DNA of 64,000 nt, taken from the NCBI GenBank assembly GCA_963771795.1, contig CAVYUR010000002.1, forward strand, positions 23,557-87,556. Reading direction: 5' to 3'. Positions within the stretch are counted from its first letter, which is position 1. Each line of letters begins with the position of its first letter. Below are positions 8,441 through 26,644 of the stretch, piece after piece. The DNA comes from an uncultured Chloroflexia bacterium. GTDB lineage: Bacteria; Chloroflexota; Limnocylindria; Limnocylindrales; CSP1-4. A program made the position numbers and the translations under genes. Below the pieces are notes generated by a model. That model was not told the origin of the DNA. It did not search any database and was given only the letters and a program-made list of their open reading frames with translations.

Positions 8441-8492
8441 ATCGATTCTGAGTGGCGGGAATCTCGGCTGTCACGCCAGGACGATCAGGGCC

Positions 8493-8785
8493 GCGTTGCG
8501 GCCTGTGCTCCTCGCTCACGGACGTCTGAGTCCGTTCGCGCTTGGAACCAAGCACGCGCTTCGCGCGGCGGTGCTCGGACCGCGCCTTGCCCTGACCGCC
8601 CGGGCGCGACGAACGCAGTCGGCTGTCGCGTCTGGACGGCCGATCGCGGCGTTGACCGCTGCGCTCCTCGCTCACGGACGTTGAGTCCGTTCGCGCGTGG
8701 AACCAAGCACGCGCTTCGCGCGGCGGTGCTCGTGGTCGCCTTGCGCTCGACCATCCGGCCGCGACGAACGCCGTCGGCTGTCGTG
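8493..8785. repeat. Tandem duplication, period 155-156 bp, of a multi-hairpin unit
   Basis: Cores 8507-8577 and 8663-8732 differ by one indel and one substitution. The flanks are also homologous. Confidence 0.9.
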
Positions 8786-8801
8786 GCGGGGCACACTACC
8801 T

Positions 8802-8963
8802 GACAGATACCACCCTGTGTGGTGAGCGTCGGCACTGACACGCCCAACAGGGCTGGGACTGTGACGAATCCGGCTCAACCGGGCGCCATCAACACCCCGG
8901 GTGGTGGATGTCGTCAACTGGCGCCCGATCCGCGGTCACAAACTACGCGAGGTGGTATCTGGC
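8802..8963. repeat. Gene-less (solo) copy of the nuclease-associated repeat module, folded into a long inverted-repeat hairpin
   Basis: ACTACGCGAGGTGGTATCTGGC at 8942-8963, inverted copy at 8802-8823, GGGTGGT core at 8899. Homologous to 14329-14412 and 13472-13542. Confidence 0.8.
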
Positions 8964-8994
8964 GCCTACCTGGCGCCAAGCTGAACGACGGTAC

Positions 8995-11253: not shown

Positions 11254-12354
11254 ATGGCGGTGACATCCCGGACGCGCAAGGCGGCGGCAGCGCACCTCGG
11301 TGACGCGGTCGGGCTGTCCGACGCGCAGTTGCTCGAGATGTACGGCGTCGTCGCGCTCGCCCGGGCCGTCGACGAGCGGATGTGGATCCTCAACAGGGCC
11401 GGCCGGATCCCGTTCGTGATCTCGGGGCAGGGTCACGAGGGCGCCCAGGTCGGGATCGCCTGGGCCCTTGAGAAGAAGAAGGACTGGATCGCCCCGTTCT
11501 ACCGCTCGATCGCGACGTGCCTGACGTTCGGGATGAGCGCCCGCGACATCCTCACCGCGCAGTACGCGACCGCGAGCGACCCCTCGTCCGGCGGCCGTCA
11601 GATGCCGGGTCACTACGGCAGCCACGAGCACAACATCGTGTCGGTCTCCTCGCCGGTCGCGACCCAGCTCCTCCACGCCGTCGGGATCGCGCTCGCCGCG
11701 AAGATCCGCAAGACCGGCCAGGTCGCAATGACCTCGATGGGGGAGGGGAGCAGCAACCAGGGAGACGTCCACGAAGGGCTCAACTTCGCGGCGATCCACA
11801 AGCTGCCGTTCATCTTCGTCGTCGAGAACAACGGCTACGCGATCAGCGTGCCGCTGGCCCGCCAGGTCGCCGGCTCCAGCGTCGCCGATCGGGCGGCCGG
11901 CTACGGGATCCCCGGTGTCACCGTCGATGGCTCCGATGTCCTGGCCTGCTACGCCGCGTCGCGCGCAGCCGTCGAGCGAGCCCGGCAGGGCGATGGACCG
12001 ACCCTCATCGAGGCAAAGGTCACCCGCCTCACCGCCCACTCATCGGACGACCAGCAGACGAAATACCGCTCCGAAGAGGAGCTCGCCGCTGAGAAGGCAC
12101 TGGACCCGCTGCCGCTCTTCCGGGCGCAGCTCGCCGATGCGGGCGTCCTGACGCCCGAGGCGGAGGAGAAGATCGTCGCCGACATCACCGCCGCAGTCCA
12201 CGACGCGACCGAGTACGCGGAGTCGCAGCCGGATCCCGACCCCTCCACGGCGATGAAGTGGGTCTTCGCCGAGGACTGGCCGGGCGAGACGCCGCCGCCG
12301 TGGGGCTTCGGGAAGCCAGGCGTGGCCGAGGGCGAGGGCGAAGGCGCCCACTGA
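11254..12354 (+). CDS. bkdAA: 2-oxoacid dehydrogenase E1 alpha, branched-chain (Bacillus BkdAA-like)
   Basis: MWILNRAGRIPFVISGQGHEGAQVG, TPP motif GEGSSNQG...VENNGYAIS, AHSSDD. GGAGGAG SD before ATG 11254. Confidence 0.75.
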   Translation: MAVTSRTRKAAAAHLGDAVGLSDAQLLEMYGVVALARAVDERMWILNRAGRIPFVISGQGHEGAQVGIAWALEKKKDWIAPFYRSIATCLTFGMSARDILTAQYATASDPSSGGRQMPGHYGSHEHNIVSVSSPVATQLLHAVGIALAAKIRKTGQVAMTSMGEGSSNQGDVHEGLNFAAIHKLPFIFVVENNGYAISVPLARQVAGSSVADRAAGYGIPGVTVDGSDVLACYAASRAAVERARQGDGPTLIEAKVTRLTAHSSDDQQTKYRSEEELAAEKALDPLPLFRAQLADAGVLTPEAEEKIVADITAAVHDATEYAESQPDPDPSTAMKWVFAEDWPGETPPPWGFGKPGVAEGEGEGAH

Positions 12355-13337
12355 TGCCGACCAAGACCTTCATCGAGGCGATCCGCGAGGGCCTGCGCGA
12401 GGAGATGGCCCGAGACGAATCGGTCATCGTCCTCGGCGAGGACGTCGGCAAGAAGGGCGGCGTCTTCCTGGTCACGGACGGGCTGTGGGCCGAGTTCGGT
12501 GAGGAGCGGGTCATCGATACGCCCCTCACGGAGTCGCAGATCATCGGAACCTCCATCGGGGCATCGATCAACGGGCTCCGGCCGGTCGCCGAGATCCAGT
12601 TCGCCGACTTCATCTTTCCGGCCTTTAACCAGCTCCTCTCCGAAGCGGCCCGGATGCGCTACCGCTCGAACAACGGTTACGGCCTGCCGATGACGGTTCG
12701 GGCGCCGTACGGCGGCGGCGTCCACGGCGCGCTCTATCACAGCCAGTCGGTCGAGGCGTTCTTCACCCACATCCCCGGACTGAAGGTCGTGATCCCGTCC
12801 ACGCCGTACGACGCCAAGGGCCTGCTCCGCTCGTCGATCCGCGACGAGGACCCGGTCCTGTTCTTCGAGCACAAGAAGATGTATCGGAGCGTGCGCGGCG
12901 ATGTCCCGGACGGCGAGTACAGCGTGCCGCTCGGCCGGGCCGCGGTGACTCATCCAGGGACCCAGGTGACGGTCATCGCCTACGGACTGATGGCCCACTA
13001 CGCGCTCGAGGCCGCCGACCGGGTCGCGGACGAGGGGATCAGCGTCGAGGTCGTCGACCTTCGGACGCTCCGCCCGCTCGACAAGGAGACGGTCCTCGAT
13101 TCGGTCCGCAAGACCGGCAAGTGCCTCGTCGTCTACGAGGACAATCGCTTCGGTGGGTATGGCGCGGAAGTTGCCGCGATCGTGGCCGAGGAGGCGTTCG
13201 ACTACCTCGATGGCCCCGTGTCCCGGATCGCCGGCCCGGATGTCCCGAGCGTCCCGTACAACCACGCGCTCGAGGACTGGTTCATGGTGAACCCGGAGAA
13301 GATCGCCGACAGCATCCGGAAGCTCGCCGCGTACTAG
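12354..13337 (+). CDS. bkdAB: 2-oxoacid dehydrogenase E1 beta, branched-chain type
   Basis: GEDVGKKGGVF, DTPLTES, EIQFADF, GGGVHGALYHSQS. ATG overlaps the E1 alpha stop. Confidence 0.8.
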   Translation: MPTKTFIEAIREGLREEMARDESVIVLGEDVGKKGGVFLVTDGLWAEFGEERVIDTPLTESQIIGTSIGASINGLRPVAEIQFADFIFPAFNQLLSEAARMRYRSNNGYGLPMTVRAPYGGGVHGALYHSQSVEAFFTHIPGLKVVIPSTPYDAKGLLRSSIRDEDPVLFFEHKKMYRSVRGDVPDGEYSVPLGRAAVTHPGTQVTVIAYGLMAHYALEAADRVADEGISVEVVDLRTLRPLDKETVLDSVRKTGKCLVVYEDNRFGGYGAEVAAIVAEEAFDYLDGPVSRIAGPDVPSVPYNHALEDWFMVNPEKIADSIRKLAAY

Positions 13338-13375
13338 CGGCTAGTTGCCGAGGAGCGCCCGCAGGCCGCGGCAGC

Positions 13376-13489
13376 CGCCACCTACCACCCCGAGTAGTCG
13401 ATGACGCGCCGGGACGACACCACGGCGCTCCACCGAGCCCGGAATCCCCGGATCCTGCCGTCATGCTCCGTTCGGGGTGGTAGATGGCG
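13376..13489. repeat. 18-bp inverted repeat (1 mismatch) built from the same motif family
   Basis: CGCCACCTACCACCCCGA at 13376-13393 versus TCGGGGTGGTAGATGGCG at 13472-13489. Confidence 0.85.
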
Positions 13490-14412
13490 ACATATTGAGG
13501 GGACGAACAAGGCAACAACTACGCGGGGTGGTATCTGGCACTAGCCCGCACCCCGGATAACCGGGAGTAGAGAGCCCGCCGCCAAGATCGGCCGATGGAT
13601 GACGTGCGCGTGGGCCGGCTCCTTCGTGCCATGCGGCTTCGGCTCGGATGGACACAGAAACGGCTGTCGGCGCGCAGCGGCGTAAGCCAACAAGAAATCT
13701 CGCTGTTCGAGCGCGGACACGTGGACCGTGCGCCGATTCGACTTGTCCGCACCGTGTTCAAGGCGCTCGACGCCAGCGCTGACTTCGACATTCGCTGGAG
13801 GGGCGGCGGCATGGATCGGTTGCTCGACGACCGACATGCCGTACTTGTCGCCGCGGCCGGCTCGTTGCTCGCACGTGCTGGTTGGGAGGTGCTGCCCGAG
13901 GTGTCGTACAGCAGGTTCGGTGAGCGTGGGTCGATCGACCTCGTTGCCTGGCATGCACCTACGAGAACCCTCCTCGTCGTCGAGGTGAAGTCGGAGCTGA
14001 CATCGCTCGAGGCAACGCTCCGGAAGCACGACGAGAAGGTGCGCCTCGGCCCGGAGGTAGTAGCAGAGAGATACGGCTGGCGGCCAGTGAAGGTGGCGCG
14101 ACTCCTCGTATTGCCGGATAGCCGAACCGCCCAACGCCGGGTGGCCGGCGCCGACAGCGTCCTGCAACGGGTATATCCGGCGCGCGGCTGGACCGTCCGG
14201 CGATGGCTCAAGGCTCCGATCGGGCGTGGCGATGGGCTCATCTACCTGCCAATAACCGCCCCACGTAGTCGAAGTCGAGCTTCGGAACGATGAAGGAGCC
14301 GGATTCGGCGCGGATCGCCCAAGGTGCACGCCATCCACCATCGAGGGTGGTGAGCGTCATCCAGTTGCCGACAGGATCTCGGCAGTCACTACGCGGGGCG
14401 GTATCTGGCACT
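13472..14412 (+). mobile_element. Candidate nuclease cassette: direct-repeat modules 870 bp apart flanking an HTH-nuclease gene
   Basis: ACTACGCGGGGYGGTATCTGGCACT at 13518-13542 and 14388-14412 (24/25 identical), with upstream GGGTGGT cores at 13475 and 14345. Mobility is inferred, not shown. Confidence 0.55.
13595..14293 (+). CDS. XRE-family HTH fused to a PD-(D/E)XK-type nuclease domain
   Basis: N-terminal LLRAMRLRLGWTQKRLSARSGVSQQEISLFERG (XRE HTH). C-terminal GWEVLPEV...GSIDL...LLVVEVKSE (E, D, ExK catalytic pattern). Confidence 0.75.
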   Translation: MDDVRVGRLLRAMRLRLGWTQKRLSARSGVSQQEISLFERGHVDRAPIRLVRTVFKALDASADFDIRWRGGGMDRLLDDRHAVLVAAAGSLLARAGWEVLPEVSYSRFGERGSIDLVAWHAPTRTLLVVEVKSELTSLEATLRKHDEKVRLGPEVVAERYGWRPVKVARLLVLPDSRTAQRRVAGADSVLQRVYPARGWTVRRWLKAPIGRGDGLIYLPITAPRSRSRASER

Positions 14413-14423
14413 CGGGCGCCGAG

Positions 14424-15599
14424 TCACGGGCGCGACGCAGCGACTGAGACACGCAACGGGCGACCGAGGAATGCCGCCAGGCGATCCGCCTCGTCCTTGA
14501 GCTCAGGCCGGGCACCGCCGCGCCAAGAGAAGAATGGCGTGACCGCGATCGTGCCCGAGCCGCGCTTGGCAGCCTCGATCTCCCAGGTTCCGGCGACCCG
14601 GCCGTCGATGACGACGACCGGCGTGACCCAGCCGGCCGTCCGATGGACGCGGTCGTGGTGGGCGTTGCCCAGCACGGAGTCGACCCGGCGTGGCAACTCG
14701 TTGGTGAACGGATCGAAGCCCGGTAGGAGTCGAGCCTCGTGGATCGGCTTCACCGCGGCGAGCGCGGCGACATCCTCGCCGCGCACCAGACCCCGGATGC
14801 CATCGACGTCGACCTCAACGATCGGATCGGTCATGACCTTGAGCGCCCGCGTGACTGCCGCCATGCGCCCGCCGCCCCACCAGCGGGCGATCATCTCGCG
14901 GCTGGCGCCCGGGAAGACCGCGAGGTAGCGCTCGATGAGCCGCCCCAGCGCGTGGTCCGCGGCTTCCGGATCCTTGTCCGGTGCAATACGCCGGCCGAGC
15001 CACTTCGAGGGATCGACGAATGCAACGTTCCGGCCGTCCGACGGGCCGAAAATCAACCGACCGCGCTGCGCGGCCGGGCCAAGGAACGTTCCCCAGCCGG
15101 TCAGCATGTCCTCGCGCAGATGGGGTCTCTTGACGCGCTTCACCACCGCGTCCACGACCTCGACGCGGGTCATCGGGCGGTCTGACAGCCCGTTGCCGAT
15201 GGCATCGATCACCTCGGCCACGCCCGCCTCGGTCATCTTGAAATAGCGCAGCCAGACCGGCGTGTGCCAGCGCTCGAGGCTCCGTGCGGCGACGACGAAT
15301 TCCTCAAGATCGTCCGGGCTGAGCAGGTGCAGGGTCTGGCGGAAGGCCCAGACTTTGACGAGGCTCCGGCGCTCCCACAGCGCATCCCGCACATCCGCGG
15401 GTCGCAGCCCGTCGATCCTGGCGGCTGCCTGGAGTTCCGCCGAGCTCAGCACCTGGGCGTGGAGGCCGACCATCCGGGCGACGACATCGACGAGCTCGTC
15501 CCGCTTCGCCCGGTTGGTGATGCGTTGGCGCTGGAGTCGAAGCGTCAGGACCTGGGGCCAGGTCGTCGAAAGGGCCGGTGGGGCGGCTGGCTTCGGCAT
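14424..15599 (-). CDS. Winged-helix DNA glycosylase, AlkZ/YcaQ (HTH_42) family
   Basis: GLHAQVLSSAELQ, VKVWAFRQTLHL, RLLPGFDPF, PVVVIDGRVAGTW. Confidence 0.75.
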   Translation of the reverse strand: MPKPAAPPALSTTWPQVLTLRLQRQRITNRAKRDELVDVVARMVGLHAQVLSSAELQAAARIDGLRPADVRDALWERRSLVKVWAFRQTLHLLSPDDLEEFVVAARSLERWHTPVWLRYFKMTEAGVAEVIDAIGNGLSDRPMTRVEVVDAVVKRVKRPHLREDMLTGWGTFLGPAAQRGRLIFGPSDGRNVAFVDPSKWLGRRIAPDKDPEAADHALGRLIERYLAVFPGASREMIARWWGGGRMAAVTRALKVMTDPIVEVDVDGIRGLVRGEDVAALAAVKPIHEARLLPGFDPFTNELPRRVDSVLGNAHHDRVHRTAGWVTPVVVIDGRVAGTWEIEAAKRGSGTIAVTPFFSWRGGARPELKDEADRLAAFLGRPLRVSVAASRP

Positions 15600-15648
15600 C
15601 GCCAAATGATGCCGTCTCGACCTGACATGGTTTGTCAGGTACGGCGCG

Positions 15649-16479
15649 TCAGATCTCGACGGCGCCCTGGATGCACGTGATCGTCCCGCCGCCGACCCAG
15701 ATCGTGCCCTCGGGATCCTGGCTGATGTGAGCTCGGCCGGCGCGGCCCAGCGCGGTGCCCTGGCTGGCGATGTACGGCGCCCGGGCCCGTCCGGTGCCCA
15801 GCAGCCAGCCGGCCAGCGAGGCGTTGAGGCTGCCCGTCACGGGGTCCTCGACCGTCGCGCCGTTGAGTGGGAAGAACGCCCGGACCTCGAAGGCGGCCGA
15901 TCCGCCGGCCGGATAAGGCCCGACGACGCCCAGGTCAAGGTCCACGAAACCCGGCTGGAGCGCCAGGACCTCGGCCGCCGACGACAACAGGACGGCGACC
16001 CAGCCCGGTCCGTTGTCGACCCACTGGCCCTCGACGATCGCCTCGCGCGGGATCCTGAGTACGTCGGCGATGTGGGCGATTGTCGGTTCGTCGACCGGCC
16101 CATCGCGGACGAGCGGCGGCGCCGCGAATGCGAGTCCGTCTGCGGATCGTCGGATTGGAATCAGGCCCGCCGGGCACTCCTGGACGATCAGAGCGGGGTC
16201 CCGGGGCAGGCCGCCCGCCTCGAGCCAGGCGTGGCATGTCCCGAGGGTCGGGTGCCCGGCGAATGGCAGCTCCTGGCCCGGCGTGAAGATGCGGACACGG
16301 TAGTCGGCCTCTTCCGAGGTGGTCGGCACGATGAACGTCGTCTCGGAAAGGTTCGTCCATTGAGCGAACCGCTTGAGCGTGGCATCGTCGATTCCGGAAG
16401 CGTCGAGGACGACCGCGACCGGATTGCCGCGGTACGGCTCCGTGGTGAAGACGTCGACCTGACTGAACGCGCGTCGCAT
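15649..16479 (-). CDS. PhzF-family isomerase/epimerase
   Basis: QVDVFTTEPYRGNPVAVV, NLSETTF, ELPFAGHPTLG, EDPVTGSLN. Start reassigned to ATG 16479. Confidence 0.88.
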   Translation of the reverse strand: MRRAFSQVDVFTTEPYRGNPVAVVLDASGIDDATLKRFAQWTNLSETTFIVPTTSEEADYRVRIFTPGQELPFAGHPTLGTCHAWLEAGGLPRDPALIVQECPAGLIPIRRSADGLAFAAPPLVRDGPVDEPTIAHIADVLRIPREAIVEGQWVDNGPGWVAVLLSSAAEVLALQPGFVDLDLGVVGPYPAGGSAAFEVRAFFPLNGATVEDPVTGSLNASLAGWLLGTGRARAPYIASQGTALGRAGRAHISQDPEGTIWVGGGTITCIQGAVEI

Positions 16480-16596
16480 GGTTTGAGTCTGCCACGGACA
16501 ATCGTGTGCGGCGCATCGCGGCTCGATGCGCGACACTAGGCGCCGAACAACGCGATGGCGGACCCCGATCCGCCCGGCGACCCGGAGGACTGACCA

Positions 16597-18207
16597 GTGG
16601 CCAAGGTGACGATGCCCCAGCTCGGCGAGAGCGTCGCCGAGGGGACGATCGGCAAGTGGCTGAAGCAACCCGGTGACACCGTCGAGAAGTACGAACCACT
16701 CGTCGAGGTGATCACCGACAAGGTCAACGCCGAGGTTCCCTCGCCGTTTGCCGGTGTGCTCAAGGAGATCCTCGCCGAGGAAGGTGCGACCGTCCCGAAC
16801 AACGCCGAGATCGCGGTCATCGAGACCGCCGACGAGAGCAACGGGACGAGTGCCGCCGCCGAGGCCGCACCCGCGGCAGAAGCCTCGCCCGCAGCGGCGG
16901 AAGCAGCGCCGCCGGCCGAAGAGCCCGCCGCAGCCGCGGAAGCCCCGGCAGCCGCCGCCACGGCCGCCCCGGACGAGGCGGGCAACGGTCCGGCCGGCTC
17001 CGACGAGCGCCCAGCGGCCGAAGCCCCGACGATAGCCGCACCGGCGCCAGCCGCACCGGCGCCAGCCGAACCCGCCGCGGCTCCGACCGCCGTCGCGAGC
17101 GCGGTCGCGGCGCCACCCAGCGCGACCGATAGCAACGGGCCGGGGAACCCGGACGCCCGCATGACGCCCGCCGTCCGACGTCTTCTGCGCGAGCACGGCC
17201 TGACGGCCGCGCAGATCGTCGGAACGGGCGGCGGCGGACGCATCACCCGCGACGACGTGACGAACTACGTGGAGTCGCAGCGAACAGGAAAGCCCGTCGG
17301 CGGCCAGGCGGTCGCCGGCACAGCGGAAGCACCTCCGGCGCCTGCGGCCGCGCCCGCTGCCGCCGCACCCGCCGCAACCACAGCTGCGGCTCCAGCCGCT
17401 CCCGCGGCCCCGACCGCCGCACCGGCGCCGGCGCCAACGGGCCCCACGCCTGCCCGGGTCGCCGCCTCAGGCGGCACGTCGATCAACTTCCCCGATGGCG
17501 TCGACGAGTACCTCGTTCCGCTGACCCAGATGCGGAAGGGCATCGCGGCCCAGATGACGCGGGCGCTCCAGGCGCCGCACGCCTACGTCCAGATGGAAGT
17601 CGACGTGACTCGCCTCGTCGCCTTCCGAGAGAAGGCCAAGCGCGAGTACCAGGCTCGCGAGGGGATCGGCCTCAGCTTCGTCCCGTTCGTGGTCAAGGCG
17701 TCGGCGGAGGCGCTCAAGCGCAACCCAACGTTCAACGCCACCTGGACCGACCAGGGTCTCGTCGCCAAGCGCCGCGTCAACATCGGCGTGGCGGTGGCGG
17801 TGGACGACGGCCTCATCGTCCCGGTGATCCGCGATGCGGACCAGCTGTCGATTCACGGGCTCAACGTCGCGATCGCGGACGTGGCGGCTCGCGCCAAGGC
17901 CGGCAAGTTCAAGGTCGACGACTTCGGCGGCGGAACGTTCACCGTCGACAACACGGGCTATCTCGGGACGAACCTCGTGATGCCGATCCTCAACGTCCCG
18001 GAGGTCGGGATCGTGACGATGGAGGCGATCACCAAGCGCCCCGTCGTCGTCTCGACGCCTGATGGCGACGTGATCGCGATTCGGCCGGTGATGAACATGG
18101 TCCTTGGCGTCGACCACCGAGCGAACGATGGCGCCGGCGGCGCAGCCCTCCTCCGCGACATCAAGGCATGGCTCGAATCAGTTGGCCCGGACACGCCGAT
18201 CTACTGA
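16597..18207 (+). CDS. bkdB: Dihydrolipoamide acyltransferase (E2)
   Basis: Lipoyl domain MPQLGESVAEG...TDKV, E3-binding MTPAVRRL..EHGL, catalytic DHRANDG. GGAGG SD. Confidence 0.85.
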   Translation: MAKVTMPQLGESVAEGTIGKWLKQPGDTVEKYEPLVEVITDKVNAEVPSPFAGVLKEILAEEGATVPNNAEIAVIETADESNGTSAAAEAAPAAEASPAAAEAAPPAEEPAAAAEAPAAAATAAPDEAGNGPAGSDERPAAEAPTIAAPAPAAPAPAEPAAAPTAVASAVAAPPSATDSNGPGNPDARMTPAVRRLLREHGLTAAQIVGTGGGGRITRDDVTNYVESQRTGKPVGGQAVAGTAEAPPAPAAAPAAAAPAATTAAAPAAPAAPTAAPAPAPTGPTPARVAASGGTSINFPDGVDEYLVPLTQMRKGIAAQMTRALQAPHAYVQMEVDVTRLVAFREKAKREYQAREGIGLSFVPFVVKASAEALKRNPTFNATWTDQGLVAKRRVNIGVAVAVDDGLIVPVIRDADQLSIHGLNVAIADVAARAKAGKFKVDDFGGGTFTVDNTGYLGTNLVMPILNVPEVGIVTMEAITKRPVVVSTPDGDVIAIRPVMNMVLGVDHRANDGAGGAALLRDIKAWLESVGPDTPIY

Positions 18208-25505: not shown

Positions 25506-26510
25506 ATGGACGTCGCGTATCGCGAGGAGCCTTGCCGCTCGGCGCTGAACCGCGTGAGGGGCATGATGTTCGGCTGGTCGCTCAACCCGTACATGGGCTG
25601 CGCCCACCGCTGCACCTTCTGTTACGTCCGGAATTTCGAGCGGCGCGCCGATCGGCCCTCTGACGACCGATACGGCCGATCGATCCGGGTCAAGGTCAAC
25701 GTCGTCGAGGTGCTTCGCCGGGAGCTCGCTAGGCCGCGCTGGAAGCACGAAGTCGTCGCAATCGGAGCCGCGACGGACCCATACCAGCCGGCGGAGGGCA
25801 GGTACCGGCTGACGCGCGGCTGCATCGAGGCGCTCGCCGAGGCCCGCAACCCGCTCTCGATCATCACCCGCGGCCCGATGGTCATCCGCGACATCGACGT
25901 CCTCGTGGAAGCCTCGCGACGTGCGAAGACATCGGTCACGTTCTCCGTCCCCACGCTCGATCACGAGATCTGGCGAACGACGGAACCGGGCACGCCGCCA
26001 CCCCGGCAACGGCTTCGGGCGCTGAGCCGCCTGGTGGACGCGGGCATCGACGCCAGCGTCGGGATGGCCCCGATCCTGCCAGGTCTATCGGACCGGCCTG
26101 AGCTGATGGCGGACGTCGTCAAGGCCGCCCGCGATGCCGGTGCGACGTCGATCTGGACGAACGTGCTGTACCTCCGGCCCGGAACGCGCGAGCACTTCCT
26201 TGAGAACCTCGCTCGCGACTGGCCGGAGCTCGTGCCACGTTATGAGCGCCAGTACGCCGGTCGCGCCTACCTGCCGAAGAGCCAGGTCGAGACGGTTCGG
26301 CGCGAGGTCGCGGACCTTCGCCATCGGTTCGACATCGCCGATCGTCGCCAGGTCAGGCTCATGCCGGCGCCCGCGCCTGATCCGAACGAGCAGCTCCAAC
26401 TGGGCCTCGGCGCCGCCGTACCTGGCCAAATGTCCACCCGCAGAACGTTCGGGAAGCTGGGTGGTGCCGTCGGCGCTCTGGATGGCGATTCGTTAGCCGC
26501 TACAGGGTGA
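25506..26510 (+). CDS. SplB-like DNA-repair radical SAM protein (Rv2578c/PA0069-like family)
   Basis: SLNPYMGCAHRCTFCYVR, GAATDPYQPAEGRYRLTR, EPGTPPP..RL, MAPILPGLSD. Confidence 0.85.
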   Translation: MDVAYREEPCRSALNRVRGMMFGWSLNPYMGCAHRCTFCYVRNFERRADRPSDDRYGRSIRVKVNVVEVLRRELARPRWKHEVVAIGAATDPYQPAEGRYRLTRGCIEALAEARNPLSIITRGPMVIRDIDVLVEASRRAKTSVTFSVPTLDHEIWRTTEPGTPPPRQRLRALSRLVDAGIDASVGMAPILPGLSDRPELMADVVKAARDAGATSIWTNVLYLRPGTREHFLENLARDWPELVPRYERQYAGRAYLPKSQVETVRREVADLRHRFDIADRRQVRLMPAPAPDPNEQLQLGLGAAVPGQMSTRRTFGKLGGAVGALDGDSLAATG

Positions 26511-26644
26511 TTCTTCGCGCAGGAGCGCCCTGTAGTGGGGTCGGACCTGCCCTAGGGTTCCCCGGGCGAACATTTGGCCAATTGCAGTCGCTGGGGCGGC
26601 CCCGACACCCGCCGGAAGCCAGTCCCTCGGCTATCCTGAGTCCG

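Follow-up and report, generated by a model that had tools for sequence, protein, structure and literature searches.

An XRE-HTH/PD-(D/E)XK nuclease gene family and its cognate nested inverted-repeat modules in Limnocylindria-like Chloroflexota: a candidate two-part system

The window analysed here is a 64,000-nucleotide stretch of DNA from the metagenome-assembled genome (MAG) of a bacterium of a Limnocylindria-like Chloroflexota lineage (2.8 Mb, 69% G+C; designated G000), and the genomes with which it is compared are uncultured MAGs. Within a 2-oxoacid dehydrogenase (bkd) operon, the window contains a gene for a 232-amino-acid protein with an XRE-type helix-turn-helix (HTH) domain and a predicted PD-(D/E)XK nuclease domain, accompanied by nested inverted-repeat modules of about 165 bp. 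We hold the chances to be about even that gene and cognate module form an undescribed two-part system resembling insertion sequences (IS) and miniature inverted-repeat transposable elements (MITEs), or the partnership of RAYT transposases with repetitive extragenic palindromes (REP) and their REPIN doublets, with an enzyme of a new class. Gene and module share a recurrent architecture, the arms of the module covary from locus to locus, gene-less copies cognate to resident genes are present elsewhere in the genome, one such copy has been gained in a single lineage, and the gene has been gained, lost and inverted between the bkdB and E2 genes of the operon. An earlier note on this DNA had singled out the locus as a possible mobile or addiction element; its observation is confirmed and is larger than noted, the same architecture recurring across the protein family, and its interpretation is partly supported.

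The 25-mer on which that note was founded, ACTACGCGGGG(T/C)GGTATCTGGCACT, is present at 13518-13542 and 14388-14412, the two copies being 870 bp apart and identical at 24 of 25 positions; a third copy, with 3 mismatches, lies at 8942-8966, and none of 100 dinucleotide-preserving shuffles produced a match. The GGGTGGT cores reported ahead of the first two copies are also present (13474-13480 and 14345-14351), and with a further core at 8900-8906 each stands about 43 nt ahead of its 25-mer. In a genome-wide search with mismatches, inverted partners were located some 140 bp upstream of every 25-mer, at 8801-8823, 13376-13398 and 14247-14269. Hence, although the direct 25-mers are real, the units are nested inverted-repeat modules of about 165 bp and not simple direct repeats. 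Each module runs from an inverted arm (I arm) through a degenerate inner direct copy, which holds the GGGTGGT core, to a direct arm (D arm) about 50 bp beyond the core, and the outer ends of the window modules read 5'-TGCCA...TGGCA-3'. The gene and the three modules of its type (A) are placed as follows.

8801..8966, + strand: A-type solo module 1, which has no gene, with its I arm (TGACAGATACCACCCTGTGTGGT) at 8801-8823, inner copy at ~8897-8910 and D arm at 8942-8966
13376..13542, + strand: A-type module 2, on the 5' side of the gene, with its I arm at 13376-13398, inner copy at 13472-13486 and D arm at 13518-13542
13595..14293, + strand: paralogue A, XRE-HTH + PD-(D/E)XK nuclease (the latter predicted), 232 amino acids, the sole credible gene between the repeats
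14247..14412, + strand: module 3, A type, 3' module of the nuclease gene; I arm 14247-14269, inner copy 14343-14356, D arm 14388-14412

Module 2 begins 40 bp past the stop codon of the E1-beta gene, and its D arm ends 52 bp ahead of the nuclease start codon. Module 3 overlaps the gene: its I arm falls in codons 218-225 (LPITAPRS) of the 232 and encodes the variable basic C-terminal tail of the protein. The whole unit, 13376-14412, is bounded by inverted arms and lies, as the earlier note had it, between convergent gene ends, the E1-beta gene ending at 13337 (+) and an AlkZ-like gene at 14424 (-), with the AlkZ-like stop codon 11 bp past the D arm of module 3.

The HTH domain occupies residues 6-62 and exceeds the Pfam thresholds for HTH_31 (39.2 bits, cut-off 27) and HTH_3 (34.3 bits, cut-off 23); by sequence profile its nearest solved relatives are HigA2, HipB, the 434 repressor and controller proteins of restriction-modification (R-M) systems. 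For the C-terminal half, family scans return weak matches only, to MTES_1575 (Pfam, E = 0.045) and to YraN-type proteins. An AlphaFold2 model made from 60 homologues (predicted local distance difference test score, pLDDT, 91) has a restriction-endonuclease-like core, with a predicted alpha-beta-beta-beta-alpha-beta order of elements (helix 73-94, strands 98-107, 110-120 and 125-131, helix 138-160, strand 166-174), and Foldseek matches this half to the R2 restriction-like endonuclease (RLE), AF1548, XisH, Can2/Card1 and a restriction-endonuclease-like-fold protein (E 1e-4 to 1e-2). Among the 60 homologues D115, E130 and K132 are invariant and E110 nearly so, within GERGSID115 ... E130-V-K132. 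On the strength of the model and these residues, the 232-amino-acid protein is an XRE HTH fused to a predicted PD-(D/E)XK nuclease, as had been proposed. Pfam and NCBIfam scans of the protein found no recombinase or transposase domain and no Y1_Tnp match, which agrees with the earlier statement that the enzyme is not of the DDE, tyrosine, serine or HUH type. Greater variability of the HTH than of the nuclease domain, as a signal of specificity, was not seen (54% vs 61% identity), and the sole hypervariable part is the arm-encoded tail, at 26% identity. The candidacy of the protein as part of a defence system or a phage was also rejected, PADLOC and PHROGs matching the HTH alone.

This architecture is widespread. 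A word-indexed search gave 2463 family matches, annotated at most as 'XRE-family regulator', and the nuclease domain as query gave 1462 representative clusters, nearly all about 250 amino acids long with the domain starting near residue 71; the two-domain architecture is therefore fixed. G000 has six paralogues (A and five others) at 38-50% amino acid identity, including one with a frameshift. Genomes of the same genus carry 3-10 copies each, often fragmented, except for one that has no copy at all, and the family is absent from nine small genomes of the same order. Full-text searches of the literature found nothing relevant on the XRE-HTH/PD-(D/E)XK family or its repeat. A frameshift splits paralogue E (G000:C6:1378605-1379320) into two overlapping frames; its 3' inverted repeat is retained, and G000 yielded no solo modules of the E type. 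A hexamer, CA(A/G)GAT or CAGACT, stands 6-8 nt ahead of the ATG or GTG start in paralogues A-E (at 13577-13582 in A), and no Shine-Dalgarno sequence lies upstream of the starts of these five genes, a pattern which suggests leaderless transcripts with a putative -10 element directly upstream.

Each gene has its own repeat. When reverse-complemented, the 3' ends of paralogues A-E each align to a site 90-130 nt downstream, with arms of 23-34 nt that differ in sequence for each paralogue. We took 80 related loci from public genomes, and tested 70 of these for a 3' inverted repeat; gene neighbours were compared for 76 related loci. The I arm begins 10-24 nt past the G of a conserved G-L-L-F-L-P motif, forming in gene-linked copies the last conserved coding part, and the D arm is 135-185 nt away. 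With gapped alignment, the inverted-repeat score of a locus against itself lay above the 95th percentile of cross-locus controls in 29 of the 70 loci, and the median own-locus score was 11.9, compared to 10.3 for the 95th percentile of a reversed-sequence control. For 26 loci chosen for a clear repeat, arm complementarity was 76% within a locus and 37% between loci. D arms are often doubled or tripled (D1, D2, sometimes D3) with a period of 48-54 bp and mostly unrelated spacers, and the GGGTGGT core of the window is the degenerate inner member of such a pair, spaced by about 50 bp. The expectation that homologues would be multi-copy and always flanked by the module is thus borne out for copy number and for the cognate 3' repeat, and not for the upstream module. 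The latter recurs at G005, L014 and L044, and is rare, being found in 3 of the 26 analysed loci, which rules it out as a general feature or an autoregulatory operator.

Three further interpretations of the arms were considered and rejected. A palindrome internal to the arm, as a defining REP-like feature, is disfavoured by its significance in just 7 of 26 arms. Arms often end ...TGGCA; a strongly conserved terminal cleavage motif is ruled out, the D-arm ends holding 0.7-0.8 bits at the CCA/TGG positions. The period of about 50 bp is reminiscent of a miniature CRISPR-like or guide array with an anti-repeat, an idea for which there is no positive evidence and to which the solo modules without a gene are opposed; the spacers of about 20 nt between D arms differ in most loci and are tandem duplicates in one.

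Complementary arms could also act in RNA, as a long-range stem at the 3' end of the messenger, or as a small RNA, controlling the stability or translation of the nuclease mRNA. The modules do fold with an I:D closing stem in all three window copies (z-scores of -2.0 to -3.9 against shuffles), and the I arm lies within the transcript. We give this explanation the slightest credence of those considered here. Arm mismatches comprise 22 G:T/T:G and 23 C:A/A:C, with G:G and C:C common, and in the lack of a G-U bias on either strand we see a constraint on DNA, not on one RNA strand. Interior structures differ between modules and are not conserved, solo modules lacking a gene lie in both orientations to neighbouring genes, and an Rfam scan of the whole window returned one tRNA only and no family matching the modules.

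The modules are not confined to the vicinity of nuclease genes. G000 has at least 26 full-length copies of 160-178 bp (5 A, 5 C, 14 D and 2 B), type-specific nhmmer profiles having yielded at least 24 of types A, C and D, and arm searches the two of type B. These four types match the resident paralogues A-D, a correspondence examined in G000 alone. Solo module 1 is a full-length nhmmer match (E 2e-32) with a 20-nt inverted repeat, 80% complementary, and the window contains one more gene-less copy.

26423..26580, + strand: solo module, D type; arms TGGCCAAATGTCCACCCGCAGAAC / GTTCCCCGGGCGAACATTTGGCCA; nhmmer E 7e-30

The cognate gene of this copy, paralogue D, lies beyond the window at G000:C6:1184119-1184781. 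Searches of the whole genome with arms and profiles, which extend the 25-mer search that the earlier note had advised, reveal dispersed gene-less modules, most of them between convergent genes and in both orientations relative to their neighbours, together with one clean presence/absence polymorphism described below. The solo module which that note placed near 8884-8963 is real and extends over 8801-8966; its description as the leftover of an excision is not sustained, there being no gene remnants beside solo modules. When the surroundings of 14 solo modules were searched in six frames with the family profile (hmmsearch), there was no match, so that these modules are not recognizable as remnants of dead gene copies.

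D-type copies share a mean identity of 49% and a maximum of 74%, and their arms (TGGCCAAATGTGC...GAACGTTAGC) and central hairpin (TTAGCC-N7-GGCTAAC) are conserved despite the drift of the interior. As judged from the aligned copies, this indicates selection on specific sites and not uniform decay, and the modules are therefore probably old and under selection. Two A-type solo modules, 8801-8966 and G000:C1:384998-385161, are common to the nearest relative at orthologous sites, and solo module 1, also found there (G001/G010), has arms better kept than its interior.

Several other repeats and unusual segments were seen beside these modules. Directly upstream of solo module 1, at 8464-8790, is a tandem repeat of 2 x 155 bp in pieces 83-98% identical; in the nearest relative the orthologous site lacks this segment, its two flanks being directly joined, and about 35 partial copies at 70-89% identity, often tandem, occur elsewhere in that genome. 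It is a dispersed repeat family separate from the modules. A long reading frame for a DnaE-like polymerase contains one C-type module (G000:C1:411346-411523): the open reading frame (ORF) on its upstream side, 409891-411510, stops within the D arm of the module, and polymerase-like sequence resumes downstream, so that the module may interrupt the gene or may lie in a variable linker. Another repeat type, on the palindrome GGAACGCCCGGCGTTCC, has no relation to the module arms and consists of inverted pairs with a spacing of 150-175 bp, at these places.

G000:C6:850966-851138: GGAACGCCCGGCGTTCC repeat pair
G000:C6:125632-125789: GGAACGCCCGGCGTTCC repeat pair
G000:C6:475365-475527: GGAACGCCCGGCGTTCC repeat pair
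G000:C4:125087-125251: GGAACGCCCGGCGTTCC repeat pair

A 343-bp region, G000:C1:563406-563748, has perfect inverted arms of 75 nt with a nested, nearly perfect pair of 65 nt, and may represent a large hairpin, an inverted duplication of recent origin or a foldback artefact of assembly.

Gain of a gene-less module is clearest for the C-type copy at G000:C6:14838-15014, between two convergent, well-conserved genes. It is missing in all nine same-genus genomes aligned at the site, the nearest relative included; the stop-to-stop distance at the empty site is 13-70 bp in eight genomes and 157 bp in G031, and coordinates place short gaps there in three further genomes. At two D-type sites the gaps in some relatives, of 22-58 bp and 42-105 bp, could not accommodate a module. 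Inserts of about 1 kb at the D-type C7 site in other genomes were considered as nuclease genes, and no family match was found on those contigs.

The gene itself varies in the gap that it occupies in the window, the borders and other contents of which are given here.

12351..13337, + strand: bkdB, the E1-beta subunit gene in the 2-oxoacid dehydrogenase operon, bordering the variable gap on the left
14424..15605, - strand: AlkZ-like DNA glycosylase gene, variable cargo of the gap, missing from ortholog locus L011
16597..18207, + strand: E2 acyltransferase gene, right border of the bkdB-E2 gap

A PhzF-like gene follows the AlkZ-like gene, and then the E2 gene. Neighbour clustering of the 76 loci found recurrent neighbours among bkd operon genes only, and no conserved adjacent toxin, methyltransferase or restriction partner gene, PADLOC again matching no more than the HTH. 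In 31 of these loci the nuclease gene lies against the orthologous E1-beta gene, at the 3' end of the latter, 17 times along the operon and 14 times against it, and in a maximum-likelihood tree the genes at the bkd site are polyphyletic, interleaved with genes from other sites. The ortholog locus L011 keeps module 2, and its synteny with the window is lost exactly at 14410, the end of a D arm. Between G002 and G005, with flanks about 80% identical, the gene segment of about 720 bp keeps its place and has the opposite orientation with respect to the bkd genes and to E2; G002 has an extra 6 kb, and G005 has copies of the arm on either side of the gene. Besides G000, four of the 15 same-genus genomes searched have the gene on bkd contigs (G007, G009, G010 and G012), the copy in G007 being a pseudogene at a different position and that in G012 a search match only. 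Eight same-genus genomes have no copy on bkd contigs; two unrelated small ORFs fill the space in five of the seven fetched, and G012 keeps part of these two ORFs. No A-type arm was found in the gene-less bkdB-E2 gaps of same-genus relatives. A comparison of bkd loci for empty sites, which the earlier note had envisaged, therefore shows that occupancy and orientation vary, and that the gene-less gaps hold unrelated ORFs and no A-type arm.

Within the genus, the gap at 13337-16597 and loci L107-L117 constitute a variable islet between the E1-beta and E2 genes, holding in different combinations the nuclease gene, the AlkZ-like glycosylase gene (intact, frameshifted or as a remnant), the PhzF-like gene, two ORFs of about 115 amino acids, or 3-7 kb of other DNA.

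Two explanations centred on the gene bear directly on these loci. PD-(D/E)XK homing endonucleases are known, and a free-standing gene of that kind would cut alleles lacking it and be copied with its flanks into the operon gap by repair, the inverted repeats being secondary (for example, autoregulatory or protective sites). The sporadic presence of the gene at a conserved bkdB-E2 site in same-genus genomes, the replacement of neighbouring DNA and the polyphyly of the bkdB-E2 genes in either orientation agree with homing. We nevertheless think it improbable, since it leaves unexplained the dispersed, gene-less, full-length modules and their match in type to the paralogues, since more than half of the loci lie away from the bkd site, and since no target sequence is identifiable in empty alleles, the gaps there holding unrelated ORFs. 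In the life cycle favoured by the earlier note, the two direct modules would recombine, excising an 870-bp circle of gene plus module and leaving a solo module, as in an integron cassette or a solo long terminal repeat. The gene is indeed bracketed by two direct modules in the window and its ortholog, the upstream module is repeated at G005, L014 and L044, and solo modules exist. As a general mechanism, such excision is not supported: the upstream module is scarce and the gene-less gaps lack an A-type arm. Furthermore, the intergenic spaces that hold solo modules are tight, and a locus with the gene in one genome and only a module in a second was not found, so that we regard a cassette cycle as highly improbable.

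The two-part system that we propose consists of a gene for a protein of about 230-250 amino acids, with an N-terminal XRE HTH and a C-terminal PD-(D/E)XK nuclease, and a module of about 165 bp, the arms of which have a sequence particular to each paralogue. The protein would bind its own arms and cleave there or close by; since the sites are inverted and phased, its substrate might be looped or extruded DNA. Through repair of the break, or through recombination by the host, modules and the DNA beside them would subsequently be spread, inverted or deleted. More specifically, and as a tentative proposition which we hold to be somewhat doubtful, the system could be a new class of mobile or self-propagating element, in which the XRE-HTH/PD-(D/E)XK nuclease spreads gene-less modules and drives inversion, insertion and deletion beside them. 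By analogy, it would then be a PD-(D/E)XK counterpart of the RAYT-REPIN partnership.

A number of observations weigh against this proposal. A PD-(D/E)XK hydrolase alone is incapable of strand transfer, and the insertion mechanism is therefore unexplained. A plausible target-site duplication accompanies one of 14 modules (TCGACTCCG/TCGACTCGG at G000:C1:384998-385161, an 8/9 direct repeat). G000 has no near-identical copies of module or gene, hence no sign of recent activity, and copy number is low, at about 26 modules in 2.8 Mb. The 3' inverted repeat is detectable in some 40-60% of loci with simple alignment methods, and linkage of the 3' arm to its gene is expected from co-inheritance alone; the cognate solo copies are the stronger argument, and this comes from one genome. 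At least two solo modules, shared with the nearest relative at orthologous sites, look selectively maintained, and fit a host function as well as a selfish one. Altogether, the history of the modules suggests a system that has for the most part been domesticated, or that replicates slowly, and not an active transposon; conservation of the arms, lack of recent copies and low copy number fit an old, a slow or a domesticated system equally well.

Domestication could be complete. The protein may be a DNA-binding protein or nuclease serving a host architectural or regulatory system, neither selfish nor mobile now, with the modules as its chromosomal binding sites: a roadblock or terminator between convergent genes, loop anchors, or hot spots of recombination or repair. 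To the conserved arms and inner hairpin amid interiors at 49% identity, the solo modules kept in the nearest relative and the absence of recent copies, such a role would add an account of the placement between convergent genes, of the phasing at about 50 bp, which would be expected if proteins bound cooperatively along a single face of the helix, and of the strongly conserved catalytic residues. It accords poorly with the module gained in the G000 lineage alone, with a gene that is often pseudogenised or lost (one same-genus genome being without a copy), with the polyphyletic occupancy of the bkd gap in both orientations and with the many divergent paralogue/arm pairs per genome, which are more typical of selfish families than of a housekeeping factor. 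On balance we consider a pure host function unlikely, though it deserves serious attention.

If the protein does act on its cognate arms, a new class of nuclease would join the few enzymes that maintain dispersed repeat families in bacteria, and would supply a second independent case, besides RAYT/REPIN, for long-lived partnerships of gene and repeat. The paralogues, each with a recognition sequence of about 25 nt alongside, would represent a natural set of matched DNA-binding nucleases and targets that might be reprogrammable. The proposed system would also account for the variable islet in the 2-oxoacid dehydrogenase operon of Limnocylindria, and give a role open to testing to over 1,400 protein clusters whose present label is no more than 'XRE family transcriptional regulator', members of a family present in several copies per genome in soil Chloroflexota.

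Among known systems, integron cassettes (gene plus attC) offer an analogy in the imperfect inverted repeat at the 3' end of the gene; no cassette array or integrase lies near the locus, and the attC core was not searched for. XRE antitoxins and R-M controllers (HigA2, HipB, C.AhdI, C.Esp1396I), which bind palindromic operators as dimers, are matched by the N-terminal 65 residues in both sequence and fold. Here, however, the HTH is fused to a nuclease, no toxin, methyltransferase or restriction gene is adjacent, and in most loci the repeats are downstream of the gene instead of over its promoter. TnsA, the R2 RLE, XisH and Rpn/YhgA share the catalytic fold and the D...E-x-K motif, the R2 RLE domain and XisH being among the best C-terminal Foldseek matches, and Rpn is likewise a multi-paralogue family in one genome; but sequence similarity to all of these is below the detection threshold, and there is no partner transposase (TnsB), reverse transcriptase or serine recombinase nearby, the conserved neighbours being bkd genes only.

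IS and MITEs are closer in their organization, as fixed-length elements (160-178 bp here) bounded by terminal inverted repeats, with gene-less copies that share their ends with a gene-bearing unit (as at 13376-14412, between inverted arms) and presence/absence polymorphism between related genomes (as at G000:C6:14838-15014). They differ in that neither the protein nor its conserved neighbours include a DDE, DEDD, HUH, serine or tyrosine transposase, that target-site duplication is inconsistent (1/14), that recent identical copies are lacking, and that in most loci both arms are 3' of the gene and do not flank it. RAYT/REP-REPIN systems resemble the present one in having one small gene of nuclease type joined to repeats of its own kind, further copies of which are scattered outside genes; in having several such pairs per genome, each with its own sequence; in the occurrence of inverted-repeat doublets in extragenic space, often between convergent genes; and in mostly vertical inheritance with slow turnover. 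The enzyme there is an HUH/Y1 (IS200/IS605-like) transposase, whereas here it is an XRE-HTH protein with a predicted PD-(D/E)XK nuclease. REPs are palindromes of about 20-40 nt in tens to hundreds of copies, and REPINs number hundreds per genome; here there are tens, about 26 doublets of 165 bp in 2.8 Mb, with an internal palindrome in 7 of 26 arms. The modules are also longer (about 165 bp), with arms of 23-33 nt, an inner copy, direct arms phased at about 50 bp and interiors that are not conserved, and one arm lies inside the coding sequence of the gene. Membership in either RAYT/REPIN or IS/MITE therefore fails because the enzyme class differs; and since the enzyme is of no DDE, tyrosine, serine or HUH type and is paired with cognate, dispersed repeats, the comparison with RAYT/REP drawn by the earlier note is an apt one.

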